In this document: positions 2,616 through 40,068 of the stretch, in pieces
Numbering within the stretch: position 1 is the first letter of the stretch
Layout of the letters: each line of letters opens with the position of its first letter
Assembly (NCBI GenBank): GCA_937936325.1
Contig: CALGWV010000018.1
Coordinates: forward strand, 1-45,883
Direction of reading: 5' to 3'
Length of the DNA: 45,883 bases
Source: an uncultured Bdellovibrionales bacterium
GTDB lineage: Bacteria > Bdellovibrionota > Bdellovibrionia > Bdellovibrionales > UBA1609
The notes under the pieces: generated by a model
Seen by the model: only the letters and a program-made list of their open reading frames with translations
What the model was told of the DNA's origin: nothing
Database searches by the model: none
Program-made: the position numbers and the translations under genes

Positions 2616-5042
2616 CTGAAAAACAACTCCTGGGCTCTTTTCTTTTTTTCTCTGATTCTCACTCTGCCTCACCTATGCTTGAGTCGTTCATGGGATAGGC
2701 CGACCCATGAGTTAATGATTAAGGCTTTAGAGTCTAATGATCTCACTTCAATAAAAAATATCCTGAGTTCAGGGCATGATCCTAATTATGCCTATGGTGG
2801 AAAAAAAACATTTTATCTTCATCAAGCCTCTACTCCGAAAGAGGTTCAGCTCCTCATCCAATATGGAGCCGACAAAGAGGCTCAAGATTTCGTAGGATAT
2901 ACCCCACTTCTACTAGCTTGCTACCAAGGTGATCTATTGAAAGTGAAGACTCTATTAAAGCTGGGGGTTCAAACTTATTATATTAGTCGCTATCGTATTG
3001 TTTCAGTTTTAGCTGTGGCAGCTCAAAAAAACCGGTCAGAGGTCCTTCGTTATTTGTTGTCACAAAGTCAAAATATTGAGTTCGAAACTTATGATTTAAA
3101 TCGCGCCATAATGCGAGCCCTTGAATATAAAAGCACTGAAAGTCTGGACCTTCTTTTGAAAGAGCCTGGCATTGACCCTAATTTTAAAGAGAGCGGAACT
3201 CTATCCCTCACGTTAAAAGCACTGACTCTGGGAAAACTTGAAGCGCTAAAAACTTTTATAAGCTTAGGGGGGGCTTTGCCCAAGTTGAGTGAGCAGGATT
3301 ACGGACCTCTTGAGTTTGCGATCTTGTCTAATCAACTGAGTGTTCTCAGTTACTTATTTAATGATTTAAATTTGAATTTTTCAAAAATGAATAACCTCTC
3401 TACAGATTTAGGAGTGTTGGATCAAGCCATACTCATGGGCTTTGCAGAAGTGTTGGATTTTGCGCTCTCCCATGGAGCTCAAATCCGTTCTGATGAAGCT
3501 ATAATCCGTCAGAATGCCTGGCTGTCACAAAGTATGAAACTGATCGATGTCCTAAGGAAACACGGCATTGATATCAACTGCTCAAATTCAGATTGTGGAT
3601 TTAAAACTTTAAGACAAGCTATATTCTCAAACCAACCCGAGAGTGAAGACTTTGCTTTATTTCTATTAGCTCACAATGATTATAGTTCTGAGCTCAGTAA
3701 ACCTGAAAATATTGATATTCTTCATCAAGCTTTTAAAATTGAAAATGAAGATTTGATCAAGGCTTTGCTGTCTCAAGGGGCTACTCTAGAGCCTAAAACT
3801 TATCCTTATCAATATGAAAAATTGGCTAAATATTATCTGAAGGAGTTAAAGGGTTCGGCTCCCACGCAGAATGATTTTGAAATTTTTTTGCAAAATCAAA
3901 AAGTTAGGATCCAGAACTCAGGCCGAGAGGGTCCACTACAAAGGCCAGCTTCTAAGGTTTTCGTTTATGATGAGCCTATTTCTCTAGGAGGCTTAGAAAG
4001 TCTCACAGCGACCCTGGGAAATTCATACCTTGATTGGCAGTCTAAAAGAGCTCACGGTAATCTAGTGGCTTCAGCATTTTTAAGAGCAGGAATGCAGGGC
4101 TTAAATTTTTTGGAATTAGACCAGTTCATGATCGGAGACTGTACAGAGTTAAGGTCACACCCCCAGCTTACGGAGTATTATTTAAATCACTTTAAATCTG
4201 ATGTTGTCTCTATGTCCTGCCAAGGGTTTAAAAAAAAATCTATGATAAATATTTTTAAATCCGCCTCAGACATTGCAGAGAAAAATCAAACTTTCACAGT
4301 TATGGCTGCCGGGAACTTCAGAAAGATTTTGAATGAAGTGGATTTGGGTTTTAAGCTCTCAGCTTATTTTTTTAGTGTTGCAAGTCTTTCTCAGGATGGC
4401 AGTTTAACCGAACTTCAATCACCCATTAATCCTGATGTAATAAAAGGTACAAACTACGGGACGGCGGTCACATTTGGAGTGGAAGGCAGTGAGAATGCTA
4501 AGATATATCAATACAGTTCGAAAAACCCTTTGTTCTATAAAATTTATAAATGGGCAGGAACTTCCTATTCTGCCCCACAGATTTCAGGGCTCATTGGGAG
4601 AATGCTCAATCGTTTGCCAAAAGCAGCGAGACATTACCCGCTATATATTCGTCAGCTCATACTTCAACATGCCCAGCCTATTGCAAAACTTAAAGACAAA
4701 CTGATGCATAATGTGGCTGTGCAGCCAGGAAGAACCTTGAAGTTTTTAGACGACTCTCCTTTTTTTAGTTATAAGAAAGTGAATCAAAAATTACATCTCA
4801 AATGTGACTTTAGATTGAAAGCTTTTAAGCTGGGTTCTCAAAGATTTGAGTGTTCAGATGAAATCGCAAGCGTGATAGATTTTAATTTGGAGACTGACAT
4901 TAAAGCCATTTACCTACACCCTTACTCTGATTTTCCACATAAAAAATGTAATTTGAAGTTTCCTCAAAATCTCAGAAAAGTTTTCCAAAAACATGGAGTT
5001 GAAGAGTACTCCGACGAAGGTATCATGGAGTGCTCCGCTTAG
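2616..5042 (+). CDS. Secreted ankyrin-repeat / S8 subtilisin-like serine peptidase fusion
   Basis: Ankyrin motifs (GYTPLLLACYQGDLLKVKTLLKLG, YGPLEFAI); S8 motifs VFVYDEP, AHGNLVAS, MAAGN, GTSYSAPQISG; in-frame CTG at 2616 adds a signal peptide (track start 2679). Confidence 0.82.
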   Translation: MKNNSWALFFFSLILTLPHLCLSRSWDRPTHELMIKALESNDLTSIKNILSSGHDPNYAYGGKKTFYLHQASTPKEVQLLIQYGADKEAQDFVGYTPLLLACYQGDLLKVKTLLKLGVQTYYISRYRIVSVLAVAAQKNRSEVLRYLLSQSQNIEFETYDLNRAIMRALEYKSTESLDLLLKEPGIDPNFKESGTLSLTLKALTLGKLEALKTFISLGGALPKLSEQDYGPLEFAILSNQLSVLSYLFNDLNLNFSKMNNLSTDLGVLDQAILMGFAEVLDFALSHGAQIRSDEAIIRQNAWLSQSMKLIDVLRKHGIDINCSNSDCGFKTLRQAIFSNQPESEDFALFLLAHNDYSSELSKPENIDILHQAFKIENEDLIKALLSQGATLEPKTYPYQYEKLAKYYLKELKGSAPTQNDFEIFLQNQKVRIQNSGREGPLQRPASKVFVYDEPISLGGLESLTATLGNSYLDWQSKRAHGNLVASAFLRAGMQGLNFLELDQFMIGDCTELRSHPQLTEYYLNHFKSDVVSMSCQGFKKKSMINIFKSASDIAEKNQTFTVMAAGNFRKILNEVDLGFKLSAYFFSVASLSQDGSLTELQSPINPDVIKGTNYGTAVTFGVEGSENAKIYQYSSKNPLFYKIYKWAGTSYSAPQISGLIGRMLNRLPKAARHYPLYIRQLILQHAQPIAKLKDKLMHNVAVQPGRTLKFLDDSPFFSYKKVNQKLHLKCDFRLKAFKLGSQRFECSDEIASVIDFNLETDIKAIYLHPYSDFPHKKCNLKFPQNLRKVFQKHGVEEYSDEGIMECSA

Positions 5043-7261: not shown

Positions 7262-7414
7262 TTGAGTTTAGCTTTCGAGAAGAGCTCGAATTACAAGTTT
7301 GAATTGAGTGTGCAAAGTGTATTGCCAGTACATTTACTCATGCTGTGATAGGGGAGACGACTTGCGGCCACGAACGTGCTTCTAATTCGAGTGCTTCACG
7401 AAAGCTAAACTCAA
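7262..7414 (+). repeat. Family-1 rod-like palindromic element, diverged copy A
   Basis: 36-bp inverted arms 7262-7297/7379-7414 (4 mismatches); loop contains GAGACGACTTGCGGCC shared with copy B; lies between convergent genes. Confidence 0.8.
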
Positions 7415-17001: not shown

Positions 17002-17331
17002 GAATTATAATCTACATTTCTTATCTGTGTCGAGACTGATTTTGCTTAAAGTGTGGGTTCAATTAAAATTCCTGCTCATTTTTTTAAGTATGATGATTCT
17101 AAAGCCTAAAATGGAGAGTTTTATTTTTTAATATAAGAGGTAACTTTGAAAAATTTAGTAAATAAGCCTTTAAACTCTATATCAGAAAACTTCTCTTTCT
17201 GTCTCTTGAAGTAGGTAAGGTTGAGTTTACGGCCTTCAAGTCTTTGTTCATTCAAAGTTCCAACCTCAAAGCTATACATAGAAATACGATGAAAAATGTC
17301 AGCCCCGGAGCGAGCTTCAAAATTTTTAATA

Positions 17332-17513
17332 GAGACTGTGGAAGATTTATTTGTCCAAACGAGAAAAGCAGCTCACGAGAAAGTAGATTGCCCACTGAGA
17401 AAATTAAATGAAGGCTTAGTTGTGCTCAGATCAGATTTTAATTTTGTCAGTGGGCAATCTAGTTTTGACTTGAAATGTTTTTTGTAGTGGAGAAACGAAT
17501 CTTCCACAGCCCC
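17332..17513. mobile_element. Family-2 MITE-like element, copy 1
   Basis: 26-bp terminal inverted repeats (21/26 match), TA on both flanks, internal 25-bp stem 17384-17408/17437-17461; homologous to 19621-19785. Confidence 0.8.
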
Positions 17514-17516
17514 TAG

Positions 17517-18224
17517 TTAAAAAGAAACTTCAAAAAAATTTCTGATCAGAGTTTGGAGCTCATTTTTAGTAAATGGGTAAGGACCTTTTTTGTAACATTC
17601 TAGATTTAACTTATGTCCATTTAGCATATTTTCTGAAAGAGAGCCAACTTCAAAAACATATTTACTGACGCTATAATTTTTCTTTAAGGTAGTTGGGAGT
17701 CTGAAAATATTTGTACTGCCTAGATGGTGCTCAGTGCTAAATGAAGTCGCTTCTGGAATAACATAAGGAGTTTGCTCTAAGTTTTTATTTTCAACTAGAA
17801 TTCGAACTTGGCAATAGGGTTTCATTTTTCTAAAAAAACAGGGTGAGAAGATTTTACTTTGAGAACATCCAAACTCGGCAGCAAGTTGAACCTGGCTTAA
17901 AATATTTTCATTATAAAATAAGTTTCTAGCATCAGAATTTGAAAAGTAAGTACTAGGTTTTTGGCCTGTAAGTTCCAAACTATAAGTTTGATCTAAGGTC
18001 CAAGGGGTAATGTTTGAGAAAACAAAAACTTTATTTTTGTCAAAAAGCTTGTAGTAAGTTCTTGTGGGTTCATAAGTGGAGTTTATGAGTTCAGAAACAG
18101 AAGGAAGAAAATCTGTCCAAGTGAGCTCAGCTTTAGAGGCGGTGGTAAACTTTAGCAATAAGAAAAAGCAGAAAAAACTCTGAATAGTAATGGCTTTAAT
18201 ACTCACCACAATAAACCCCAACAA
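17517..18224 (-). CDS. Hypothetical secreted protein
   Basis: Signal-like N-terminus; overlaps aldolase stop; GTG at 18206 is an alternative start. Confidence 0.62.
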   Translation of the reverse strand: MLGFIVVSIKAITIQSFFCFFLLLKFTTASKAELTWTDFLPSVSELINSTYEPTRTYYKLFDKNKVFVFSNITPWTLDQTYSLELTGQKPSTYFSNSDARNLFYNENILSQVQLAAEFGCSQSKIFSPCFFRKMKPYCQVRILVENKNLEQTPYVIPEATSFSTEHHLGSTNIFRLPTTLKKNYSVSKYVFEVGSLSENMLNGHKLNLECYKKGPYPFTKNELQTLIRNFFEVSF

Positions 18225-19438: not shown

Positions 19439-19620
19439 TAGTAGATGTTAGACCCCTTCAGGTATAACAAATCTTATTGCTACCATAGATAGTCCTTAAG
19501 TCTAATGCTGTTAAAGCTTTTCAATTAGATTTTTCCCACATAGTTTAAATGTAAGGCTTTTAGAGGGGGCGCTTTGTAAAAAGTGTATAAAAAGCTTTTA
19601 TTTTAAAGATTCTAAATTTA

Positions 19621-19785
19621 AAGGCTTTGGAAGATTCGTTTGTCCAAATGAGAAATTAGATTGCGCACAGACAAAGTAAATTGAAGGCTGAGTTGTGACT
19701 CGGTCGAGTTTAATTTTGTCAGTGCCCACTTTGGTTTCGACTTGAGATGTTGTTTCTAGTGGACAAACGAATCTTCCACAGCCTC
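19621..19785. mobile_element. Family-2 MITE-like element, copy 2
   Basis: AAGGCTTTGGAAGATTCGTTTGTCCA ... TGGACAAACGAATCTTCCACAGCCTC (24/26), TA flanks. Confidence 0.82.
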
Positions 19786-19830
19786 TAAGGTTTTAGAACG
19801 TAGAACAACAAGTAAATAGGAGGATAAGGT

Positions 19831-37546: not shown

Positions 37547-37649
37547 AAATCAAATTTGAAGCCTTTAAATATTCGTGTTTGGCTTCGAGCTAATTCCTAT
37601 ATTTAAAGATTAAACTCTAATCACTGAGAAAGTTAATTTAAGTAATGGG

Positions 37650-37873
37650 TGTTAAGCACTTTTAATTCTTGTGTCTTCTTTGTGAACTCTTGAAGTCATT
37701 TCCCACTGGATAAAAAAAGCCCGCTTTCGGCCGCAAGTCGTCTCATGGAATGTATTATGAATACATTCCACACCCCAAGGTACGCCTTGCCGCGACGCTC
37801 AAAGCTTTCTTTTCTAGTGGGAAATGACTTCAAGAGTTCACAAAGAAGACACAAGAATCAAAAATGCTTAACA
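37650..37873 (-). repeat. Family-1 rod-like palindromic element, copy B
   Basis: About 70-bp inverted arms containing a 43-bp perfect stretch, around an 83-nt core (37721-37803). Confidence 0.92.
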
Positions 37874-37892
37874 TGCTAATAATTTTATTCTA

Positions 37893-38060
37893 AGGCGTGT
37901 CCCGAATTCTATATGGTGCTACAAAATACAGGTCGTATTCAAAGTCAGTGAGCGCAGGTCGAATAAATTTTTAGCTAGCCATGGGCTTACTTACAAATTT
38001 GAGAGGGCGAGCATTGTTGAGTTTGGATCTGAGATGGGTTATGTAGCTTTATGACCTGAT
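37893..38060. mobile_element. Family-3 MITE-like relic (right end decayed, boundary approximate)
   Basis: Begins CTA|AGGCGTGTCCCGAATTC; shares CGCAGGTYGAATAAATTTT, TACTTACAAATTT and GCGAGYATTGTT with 19268-19327. Confidence 0.6.
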
Positions 38061-38314
38061 GCCGTACCAAAATGGCATTACTTTTGGCTCCATGTGCTCA
38101 TTCGAGGGTCGGAGAAGTATAGAGGTGGAAATACTTGATGAGCAACAGATATTAAAAACTAAAATTATATCCTCAGATGACTGCTCATCTGGTCAATTCC
38201 AGTAATATGTTCGTGAGCCCAAATCACAATCACTCTCTTGGAAATACTTACTATTTTAAAACTTCTAATAGTAGAGGTCTGTAAGTGTATTAGTAAATAA
38301 GATACAATCAATTC

Positions 38315-39532
38315 ATGAATAAAAAAATTGCAATTATTGGGGCTGGACTATCAGGTTTAGCAGCAGCCTTAGAGCTCAAGAAACTAGGCCATCAAATTAA
38401 AGTTTTTGATCAGTCTGTTAAAGTGGGTGGGCGAGTTCAATCGGATCATATCGATGGTTATACCTTGGATCGAGGTTTTCAGGTTCTCCTTCCGTCCTAT
38501 GAAATGGCGCAACATTATTTTGATTATGAAGATCTAAAACTCTCGGGTTTTCAGCCTGGAGCGCAGATCTATAATCAGTCCTCACAAAAATTTAATATAA
38601 TATCAGACCCCCTTCGAGACCCATCAACACTGTTAGTTACAGTTTTTAATTCGGTGGCGAGTCTCAAAGACAAATATTTGATTTTAAAATTAAAACTAAA
38701 TACAAAAAATTTTGAGATGAAGAGTCTTTCAAATACAACGACTTATTCAGGGCTTAAAGAGTTTGGGTTTTCAGACAAATTTATTAACGGATTTTTAAAA
38801 CCCTTTTTCTCAGGTGTCTTTCTGGAAAAGGAATTATCTCTAGACTTTAATTTTTTCAAGTATTTATTCTCAAAGTTTAATTCTTCCCAAGCGGTGCTAC
38901 CCCTAGGTGGGATGGGTGCACTTTCAGAACAAATGGCTAAGTCTCTATCTCAGGAGGAACTCAAACTAGGTATCAAGGTTGAAAGTTTCACACAAAACTC
39001 AGTCCAGACTCAAAATGCAGGTGAAAAATTTGATCATGTGATCTGCGCCATGGGGCAAGATCAAGCTCAAAAAGTTGGAGGTTTAAAGCTTAAGGCTGAG
39101 TCTGAGTCTGCTGAAACATATAGGCCAGTCGTCACTTCCTACTTTACAACTCCATCTGAGAAACACTCCTCTAAATATTTATATCTATTACCAGGTCATA
39201 AAGTGAATCACGTGGCTTGTCTTACAGCAGTCCAAAAAAGCTATGCTCCAAAAGGGCAAGTACTCTATTCAGTGAACTCCATAGAGTCAGAGGCTAGAGA
39301 TCCAAAAGAAATAATCCAAAGCCTAGTTCCAGTTTTTGGCGAAACAGAGATGAAAACATGGAGTCATCTCAAAACCTATGAAATTAAAAAAGCTCTTCCT
39401 AAAAACTTCCTAAATCAAGATAAAACTTTATCCCAAAATGGAATATTATATATCGGAGACTACACTCAACACCCATCCATCCAAGGCGCACTGGAATCAG
39501 GATATAAATGTGCCCAAGAAATTAAAAAATAA
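38315..39532 (+). CDS. FAD-dependent oxidoreductase (amine oxidase/phytoene dehydrogenase-like)
   Basis: IAIIGAGLSGL, VGGRV, LDRGFQVL, GDY...SIQGALESG. Confidence 0.88.
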   Translation: MNKKIAIIGAGLSGLAAALELKKLGHQIKVFDQSVKVGGRVQSDHIDGYTLDRGFQVLLPSYEMAQHYFDYEDLKLSGFQPGAQIYNQSSQKFNIISDPLRDPSTLLVTVFNSVASLKDKYLILKLKLNTKNFEMKSLSNTTTYSGLKEFGFSDKFINGFLKPFFSGVFLEKELSLDFNFFKYLFSKFNSSQAVLPLGGMGALSEQMAKSLSQEELKLGIKVESFTQNSVQTQNAGEKFDHVICAMGQDQAQKVGGLKLKAESESAETYRPVVTSYFTTPSEKHSSKYLYLLPGHKVNHVACLTAVQKSYAPKGQVLYSVNSIESEARDPKEIIQSLVPVFGETEMKTWSHLKTYEIKKALPKNFLNQDKTLSQNGILYIGDYTQHPSIQGALESGYKCAQEIKK

Positions 39533-39713
39533 AACTTCAAAGCTAGCTTGAAGCAGGTTTTAGTTTTAAAGAATTAGAAGTTCGTTATATTTCTAATAAA
39601 CTTATGGACAGCGAGTAGGACGTGAAACAATTGTTTTTTGGCACACCAAAAAGTTATTGGGTTTATGTTAAAGGATGCTTTGGCACGAAAAAAATAGAAT
39701 ATCCAACTGCGTA

Positions 39714-39908
39714 TTTTAAAGCTTGAGATTGATTTTGGATTTCTTAAAGATGTTGAATAAGGCGGAAGCGTTGAACGTCGCGGCAGCGCGTATCTTGGTG
39801 TGTGATATGTACACATAGCACATTTCAGGAGACGTTCTGCGGCCGAAAGTGGGCTTCCATCTTATTCAACATCTTTAAGAAATTCAAAATCAATCTTAAG
39901 CTTTAAAA
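39714..39908 (+). repeat. Family-1 rod-like palindromic element, copy C
   Basis: 56-bp arms 39714-39769/39853-39908 (4 mismatches), 83-nt core 65/83 identical to reverse complement of copy B core. Confidence 0.92.
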
Positions 39909-40068
39909 ATAGACATGATCCACTCATATTGGCGTTGTAGCACCGCCATTCTCAAGATGTAGGCCATATTTTGGGATTTAGCGATATTTTTTTAAATTTT
40001 CTCAACCAAATCTTCATTATTTTTTAACTTCAGGCTAATTTACCGTGCAACAACACCACTCATATTTA

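Follow-up and report, generated by a model that had tools for sequence, protein, structure and literature searches.

Bacterial hairpin repeats such as REP/REPIN sequences and MITEs are recognised by their conserved ends. REPINs are doublets of REP sequences that form hairpins, and they go together with RAYT transposases of the Y1 HUH type. MITEs keep terminal inverted repeats, usually with target-site duplications, and take their place beside the Correia/NEMIS, ERIC, RUP, BOX and RPE elements among the small dispersed repeats of bacteria. Large palindromes, in turn, are kept identical by gene conversion from arm to arm. In the part of the REPIN description drawn on here, no two spacers are alike and all of them form a hairpin (PMC3337134). 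In E. coli, template switching is an established route by which quasi-palindromes are corrected (PMC7202029).

Like REPINs, the elements analysed here are intergenic, non-coding, multicopy long hairpins, and they have a middle portion that varies between copies and always pairs, for which the spacers in that part of the REPIN description offer a comparison (PMC3337134). However, a REPIN conserves its ends, the REPs, without a conserved centre, whereas here conservation falls on the apex, where a structured core of about 80 nt is common to several arm classes and genera. The same part of the REPIN description contains no conserved structured apical module that recurs across different ends and genera (PMC3337134). 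We class these elements as foldback or REPIN-like repeats whose tip is conserved, and not as REPINs proper, because conserved ends and a cognate RAYT (Y1) were both looked for in the genome that carries the elements A, B and C and neither was found there.

Hairpins A, B and C and their copies in the host genome

The window is the whole stretch of DNA that was analysed, positions 1–45,883 of contig CALGWV010000018.1 from the assembly GCA_937936325.1 of an uncultured Bdellovibrionales bacterium, whose genome is called the host genome below. A first-pass annotation of this DNA had marked three long hairpins. All three are borne out by the inverted-repeat search, with arms of 36 (A), 68 (B) and 56 nt (C) and centres that span 81–88 nt (Table 1). 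By gapped alignment, B has arms of 70/71 nt and an 83-nt loop. All three hairpins are intergenic: B is flanked by genes for an OppC-type permease and a flavin amine oxidase, and C by that same amine-oxidase gene and a convergent gene for a pyridine-nucleotide disulphide oxidoreductase. The 65 of 83 positions at which the cores of B and C had been reported to agree without gaps were reproduced exactly when core C (39770–39852) was laid against the reverse complement of B (37721–37803). Core A is a divergent member, with just 30 of 83 positions identical in an ungapped comparison, yet the covariance model described below gives it a score of 50 bits.

Table 1. Coordinates of hairpins A, B and C in the window; arms are from the inverted-repeat search and model matches from the covariance model.
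Feature	Position	Strand	Evidence	Inverted arms	Model match
Element B, whole hairpin	37650..37873	− (core sense on minus strand)	inverted arms and model match	37650–37717 / 37806–37873; 68 nt, 93% complementary, 88 nt between	37711–37809 (−), 98.1 bits
Core of B	37718..37805	−	83 nt aligning with C (37721–37803); covarying helices		
Element C, whole hairpin	39714..39908	+	inverted arms and model match	39714–39769 / 39853–39908; 56 nt, 93% complementary, 83 nt between	39764–39862 (+), 100.4 bits
Core of C	39770..39852	+	between arms; covarying helices; identity with B		
Element A, whole hairpin, divergent subtype of the family	7262..7414	+	inverted arms and model match	7262–7297 / 7379–7414; 36 nt, 89% complementary, 81 nt between	7292–7387 (+), 50 bits, E 7e-15
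Core of A	7298..7378	+	between arms; model match		

The window holds several further features. A terminator scan flagged the small 3′ hairpin of B alone, with 3 sites in the region compared to 2.0 expected. A candidate sigma-70 promoter within the core was rejected, as the pair TTGAGC ... TATCTT is spaced by only 14 nt (by eye). On the 5′ side of B, positions 37886–38047 belong to another repeat family, with a unit of about 160 nt. Elsewhere in the genome, 16 contigs hold 17 more matches to it at 71–88% identity; one of its copies (C21:2021–2203) folds with 52-nt arms. Two copies of an ordinary MITE-like family lie at 17323–17522 and 19618–19788. Its members have a centre of about 130 nt between inverted ends that are conserved over about 28 nt, and the genome contains about 11 copies (by eye). 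At 2679–5042 there is a 787-residue open reading frame in which, judged by eye from the translation alone, ankyrin-type repeats are followed by a protease-like part.

The host genome comprises 2.06 Mb in 138 contigs, with 38.9% GC and 99.3% completeness. BLAST with the three cores found 33 places in it, and a covariance model built from 26 cores gave 57 matches, which were reduced to 38 distinct places by removing opposite-strand echoes; 36 of the 38 have E ≤ 2.1e-9. Inverted arms of 11–80 nt (median 50) enclose the core at 37 of the 38 places, the remaining copy, on contig C58, being without arms. The modal loop is 83 nt, found in 13 of the 37 armed copies. Chance falls far short of explaining such a pattern. 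Over all copies in the genome, 1655 arm positions are complementary to the copy's own partner arm and 131 are not (92.7%), compared to 2973 of 3086 positions (96.3%) in 48 copies from other genomes. With this level of pairing, and with cores that are about 74–91% identical by BLAST, the copies in the host genome look old.

The annotation had described the arms as specific to each copy, and across the genome they are. In 34 of the armed copies, 63 of 68 arms match only themselves and/or their partner within the genome; three of the remaining five had one extra match, and the two arms of the copy at C38:26978 had three. Arms of different copies match each other only as exact 10–12-mers. The pairwise local similarity of 33 5′ arms is 13.70; reversed controls give 13.17 (p 0.004) and shuffles 11.9, a difference that comes to next to nothing. 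No arm classes were found in this genome, and no third copy of an arm was seen at a putative source, setting aside the extra, unexamined matches of 5 of the 68 arms. Inspected by eye, about 12 of 34 copies have a T-run and then GAG at their outer end, and no target-site duplication was seen. At their inner ends, the 5′ arms are rich in purines and the 3′ arms in pyrimidines (by eye).

The family resembles MITE-type repeats in being short, non-autonomous, intergenic, foldable and patchy, with a copy number that varies among relatives. It differs from them in its termini, which are at best weakly conserved (the T-run and GAG of about 12 in 34 copies), and in that no duplication was seen. MITEs also have an autonomous relative among the insertion sequences whose ends they share, and none was found in the host genome.

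Mismatches within the arms are unevenly divided between the strands. Read on the core-sense strand, G-T mismatches outnumber A-C mismatches by 50 to 29 in this genome (p 0.024) and by 41 to 16 in the 48 copies from other genomes (p 0.0013). This bias may reflect selection on a folded sense strand, or else that strand is more often single-stranded and deaminated.

Among all inverted repeats of the host genome with arms of at least 25 nt, 30 of 79 contain the core and 49 are coreless. Only about six of the coreless ones are unique (by eye), and the genome does contain ordinary repeat families with conserved inverted ends. A separate group of perfect palindromes of about 30 nt, with loops of 1–5 nt and a common sequence, has at least seven copies by eye (for example, C129:26248–26308, C72:12547–12607 and C74:7224–7286).

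All 38 copies of the family are intergenic, that is, outside called long open reading frames. Eight lie between convergent genes, 7 between divergent genes and 18 between tandem genes, with 5 undetermined at contig ends; the tandem copies point in the direction of the genes in 7 cases and against it in 11. The 3′ side of the core is much nearer to the next gene than the 5′ side (medians of 35 and 183.5 nt), and this is so in 28 of the 32 copies having a called gene on both sides (p 2e-5). The near 3′ neighbour presents its end in 18 cases and its start in 14, and the proximity holds in both arrangements. The asymmetry is absent in 35 copies from other genomes (17/35), and in the host genome neither a shared flank sequence nor a small open reading frame in the 5′ flank accounts for it: comparison of the flanks among copies gave 0 matches on the 5′ side and 0 on the 3′ side, and the 5′ flanks have no small open reading frames in common.

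Fold of the core and its distribution among relatives

The consensus core folds into a long irregular hairpin followed by a small 3′ hairpin. In 26 cores, 86.5% of the cells of the 27 modelled pairs are paired, compared to 28–51% with the partners slid, a control that is inflated since the fold was derived from the same sequences on which it was counted. Changes on both sides of the pair were found in 15 of the 27, a number reached in 0 of 500 shuffles. Many of the pairs are G-U on the sense strand and A-C on the opposite strand. When 73 distinct cores, drawn from six or more genomes, were aligned by fitting them to the model, the motifs GCGTATC, AGACG and TGCGGCC proved nearly invariant. The core is a covarying, strand-specific fold that is conserved across genera. 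Both this fold and the contrast in identity between cores and arms agree with the annotation, which had taken the centre to be the conserved unit. It had also suggested a comparison with Rfam, which returned no matching family by gathering score or by E-value: there were 0 matches at the gathering score over the whole window, and the best match over 37600–39950 was a viral element at 21.9 bits, compared to a cut-off of 100.

In the GTDB family of the window, the core model matched 16 of 109 genomes at E ≤ 1e-5. The positive genomes belong to 11 of the 35 genera and have between 1 and at least 37 copies each. A further assembly, G041, gave 60 matches. Outside the family the core was not met: a phylum-wide sample gave matches in 3 of 151 genomes, all in the window's own family, and at E ≤ 1e-9 the 140 sampled genomes that represent 24 other families gave no match. 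A scan for the exact core pattern in one genome per species returned 44 stretches. Eleven of them are in Pseudobdellovibrionaceae or Bdellovibrionales records (8, 2 and 1 in three assemblies), and all 11 have the same hairpin architecture. The other 33, outside Bdellovibrio-like records, were set aside uninspected as chance matches, about 28 being expected by a rough estimate. The pattern was not found in viral contigs, and blastn searches with B against phages and with C against plasmids returned nothing. Metagenome contigs searched with the gene between B and C yielded no relative. A DNA search of 40 relatives with element C gave no match outside its own genome, and a covariance model was therefore needed.

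There is no genome from the same genus, and synteny is not conserved in the relatives, so that true empty orthologous sites are lacking. Within 1.5 kb of the amine-oxidase orthologues of six family genomes, neither a core nor an inverted repeat of 25 nt or more was found; since the neighbouring genes differ, these six loci do not count as true empty sites. In three sequencing runs the contigs break at the elements, and neither a filled nor an empty variant was seen. The elements break metagenome assemblies, whose contigs end in them.

One explanation that these findings bear on takes the elements for a multicopy gene of a structured non-coding RNA that serves the host. The long double-stranded stem would then aid only processing or stability, for example release of the core by RNase III, and nothing but its pairing would be selected. 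This would agree with the covariation of the core and its many G-U pairs on one strand only, with the excess of G-T over A-C in the arms on that same strand, and with the conservation of the core in 11 of 35 genera. However, the orientation of the copies is unrelated to their neighbours (7 tandem copies in the same and 11 in the opposite direction, 8 convergent, 7 divergent), and there is no common flank that could act as a promoter (0 matches on the 5′ side and 0 on the 3′ side). The distribution is patchy, with 0 to about 60 copies among related genomes, and positions are not conserved, the core being present at 0 of 6 orthologous gene loci. The nesting and the REP-type ends described in the next section point to mobile DNA instead. 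We consider an RNA gene of this kind improbable.

Arms in related genomes and the search for a partner enzyme

In 38 copies from six other genomes, every core lies between inverted arms, which measure 21–166 nt. One informative data set is a subfamily of eight copies in the genome G042, in which the cores are 88% and the arms 57% identical (mean of 28 pairs). These arms align in register between copies, with a similarity of 24.3 compared to 16.3 for the reversed control (p 9e-5), and 41 of 49 columns vary. Complementarity between the two arms of one copy is nevertheless 45/47 to 55/55. Because the arms are in register, diverged and still paired, we conclude that they are inherited together with the core, diverge fast and are kept paired.

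G047 is a complete genome of 3.33 Mb, and 20 of its at least 37 copies were read. The 20 cores are almost identical save in the middle of the apical loop. The arms are 46–81 nt long, perfectly complementary in 9 of the 20 copies, and GC-rich in AT-rich flanks, as read from the sequences. One arm was found at 32 places, in most cases as two inverted copies about 110–170 nt apart, and two other arms are unique in that genome. In two arm classes, 1 and 2, the outer parts of the arms are common at 82–100% identity, and the inner parts are alignable and much more diverged (by eye). Class-1 palindromes are present both with the core and without it, in the latter case as perfect 52-nt arms around a 7-nt loop. 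Two RAYT-like Y1 transposase genes (L157 3403–4712 and L188 1110–1978) are each flanked by inverted repeats, and these match the outer 26–36 nt of arms of classes 1 and 2. In G047 the likeness to REPINs thereby extends further than in the host genome: conserved ends, and a cognate RAYT flanked by the same REPs, are present for these two classes and absent from the host genome.

One further G047 core, at L158 450–805, is interrupted by a hairpin-forming insert of about 115 nt and is nested in a class-1 hairpin. A comparison of strand with replichore in G047 (23 vs 14 copies) was dropped, being not significant and resting on an origin assumed at coordinate 1.

G041 contains nine copies of a composite of about 440 nt that are nearly identical inside (by eye from the alignment). 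The outermost 15–40 bp of their arms differ between copies but are compensated. In the copy L109, a second core has its apical hairpin occupied by a full core that points the other way and has arms of about 45 nt, and the two halves of this outer core are 32/35 and 28/31 identical to the inner one. One arm in G099 extends over the final 13 nt of the gene upstream, and the G097 orthologue of this gene has a similar end. The intergenic site of G097 that is orthologous to the G099 core site is occupied by a different hairpin of about 426 nt (G097:C104:4759–5185, L128), with arms of about 150 nt and a centre that is only loosely core-like. A second orthologous site of these two genomes ends at a contig break.

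Two accounts of the arms had been offered with the first-pass annotation. According to one, an inserting core duplicates the adjoining target DNA in inverted form, so that one arm is the old flank and the other a new copy. The uniqueness of the arms per copy in the host genome would be expected from this, and the proximity of genes on the 3′ side (28/32) could reflect one arm absorbing flank. The G099 arm that includes the last 13 nt of a gene also fits, and this arm could have pre-existed. However, the arms of G047 are GC-rich in AT-rich flanks and are therefore not copies of the local flank, its arm classes recur at many loci and match the RAYT-flanking repeats, and one of them also forms a coreless palindrome. 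The G042 arms align between copies in register, the 35 copies of other genomes show no side bias (17/35), and in the host genome no third arm copy was seen at a putative source, with 63 of 68 arms matching only themselves or their partner. The duplication of flanks is left unsupported by this evidence, and we regard it as very unlikely. The other account, in which selection on structure only or conversion within the hairpin keeps the arms paired, fits the data, as in the G042 copies with their arms at 57%, cores at 88% and own pairing of 45/47 to 55/55.

The annotation had also stated that no partner enzyme is visible. This extends from the window to the whole host genome for the four kinds of candidate that were looked for: there were 0 matches to Y1_Tnp (at 99.3% completeness) and 0 to RVT_1, no multicopy protein (3 paralogue pairs among 2187 frames), and no recurrent neighbour among 119 frames within 1.5 kb of copies. 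Among transposase families, the search covered Y1_Tnp. Insertion sequences are often lost from metagenome bins, and for this reason the absence of an autonomous insertion sequence is not a strong argument. Elements derived from IS200/IS605 need TnpA (Y1) together with conserved subterminal hairpins, whereas the host genome has 0 Y1 matches and no conserved ends.

In the family as a whole, Y1_Tnp is present in 14 of 16 core-positive and 55 of 93 core-negative genomes, a weak association among relatives that are not independent. Weak, RAYT-like matches to Y1_Tnp occur in 69 of the 109 family genomes, with up to 24 per genome. The core was found at 0 of 24 RAYT-like loci in five genomes. Arms that fall into classes matching the ends of mobile elements had been named in advance as a result that would remove the novelty of the family. 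Such classes do exist in G047, where there are two of them, and do not in the host genome, which has no arm classes and no Y1.

Origin and maintenance of the hairpins

We propose, with a probability of roughly 0.5, that A, B and C are members of a lineage-restricted family of REPIN-like foldback DNA repeats with a conserved tip and with correction of their paired arms. The whole hairpin is the unit that is inherited and copied, and its arms change far faster than the core yet stay complementary within a copy. The core may be a cis-acting site, as single-stranded DNA or as RNA, that is read by the copying or maintenance machinery. The arms would be constrained only to pair, and would not be copies of the insertion site. 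Their pairing may be kept by arm-to-arm correction, by analogy with template switching in quasi-palindromes or with gene conversion, and/or by one arm being rebuilt from the other at each copying event. In the host genome, where the copies are probably old and no Y1/RAYT gene was found, the arms may have drifted until they looked unrelated. As in corrected palindromes, the arms stay complementary while their sequence is free, and such correction is a known way for imperfect inverted repeats to become perfect. The comparison differs in that such corrections are processes and not element families, and they are applied to 50-bp arms and an 83-nt loop by analogy.

Several findings count against this explanation. 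Near-identical cores in G047 stand beside some arms that are unique in that genome, and gradual drift there needs arms that change more than 10 times faster than cores, very strong selection per copy, or conversion of the cores. The inheritance of whole hairpins leaves the proximity of genes on the 3′ side (28/32) unaccounted for, and the host genome has no Y1_Tnp, RVT_1, multicopy protein or recurrent neighbour. In addition, the nested core of G041 and the coexistence of coreless and core-bearing class-1 palindromes in G047 fit a core that moves on its own.

Such a core, with a short stem of its own, would be a small mobile module in its own right, entering DNA hairpins that are already present at their tips. 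Its targets would include REPINs, other palindromes and its own copies, and long composite arms would be nested older hairpins. The G041 core with its ~45-nt arms inside the apical hairpin of a second core (32/35 and 28/31) would agree with this, as would the occurrence of class-1 arms in G047 both around a core and around a 7-nt loop between perfect 52-nt arms. Nearly the same G047 core is moreover found in class-1, class-2 and unique arm contexts, and a hairpin element of about 115 nt has inserted into one core there. Against this, unique coreless palindromes are rare in the host genome (about 6 of 49, by eye, compared to 30 core-bearing inverted repeats), so that a stock of targets for insertion is lacking. 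Unique arms would, moreover, still come with the inserted unit, which pushes their origin back by one step, and the coreless palindrome could equally be a deletion product. We think an independently mobile core rather unlikely. A more specific proposal also seems unlikely to us, namely that the ~80-nt core is a self-contained, structured single-stranded DNA or RNA module that homes to hairpin tips and so colonises REPINs, other palindromes and its own copies. It would do so with an enzyme other than a Y1/RAYT transposase or a reverse transcriptase of the Pfam type, and the stems would be rebuilt or corrected to keep their pairing perfect. If it were true, the core would represent a new class of mobile element that targets hairpin apices.

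For the reading that we prefer, a family of foldback repeats with a conserved tip and corrected arms, the meaning lies in which part of the hairpin is kept. The strongly conserved, covarying part is here the tip, and it is common to hairpins with different ends and in different genera. If this tip is read by the copying or maintenance machinery, it would point to an unrecognised way to mobilise or keep hairpin DNA in Bdellovibrio-like bacteria. The family also offers a clean natural system for the question of how a palindrome can keep its two arms complementary through the turnover of their sequence, with 2973 of 3086 positions paired in the copies from other genomes.
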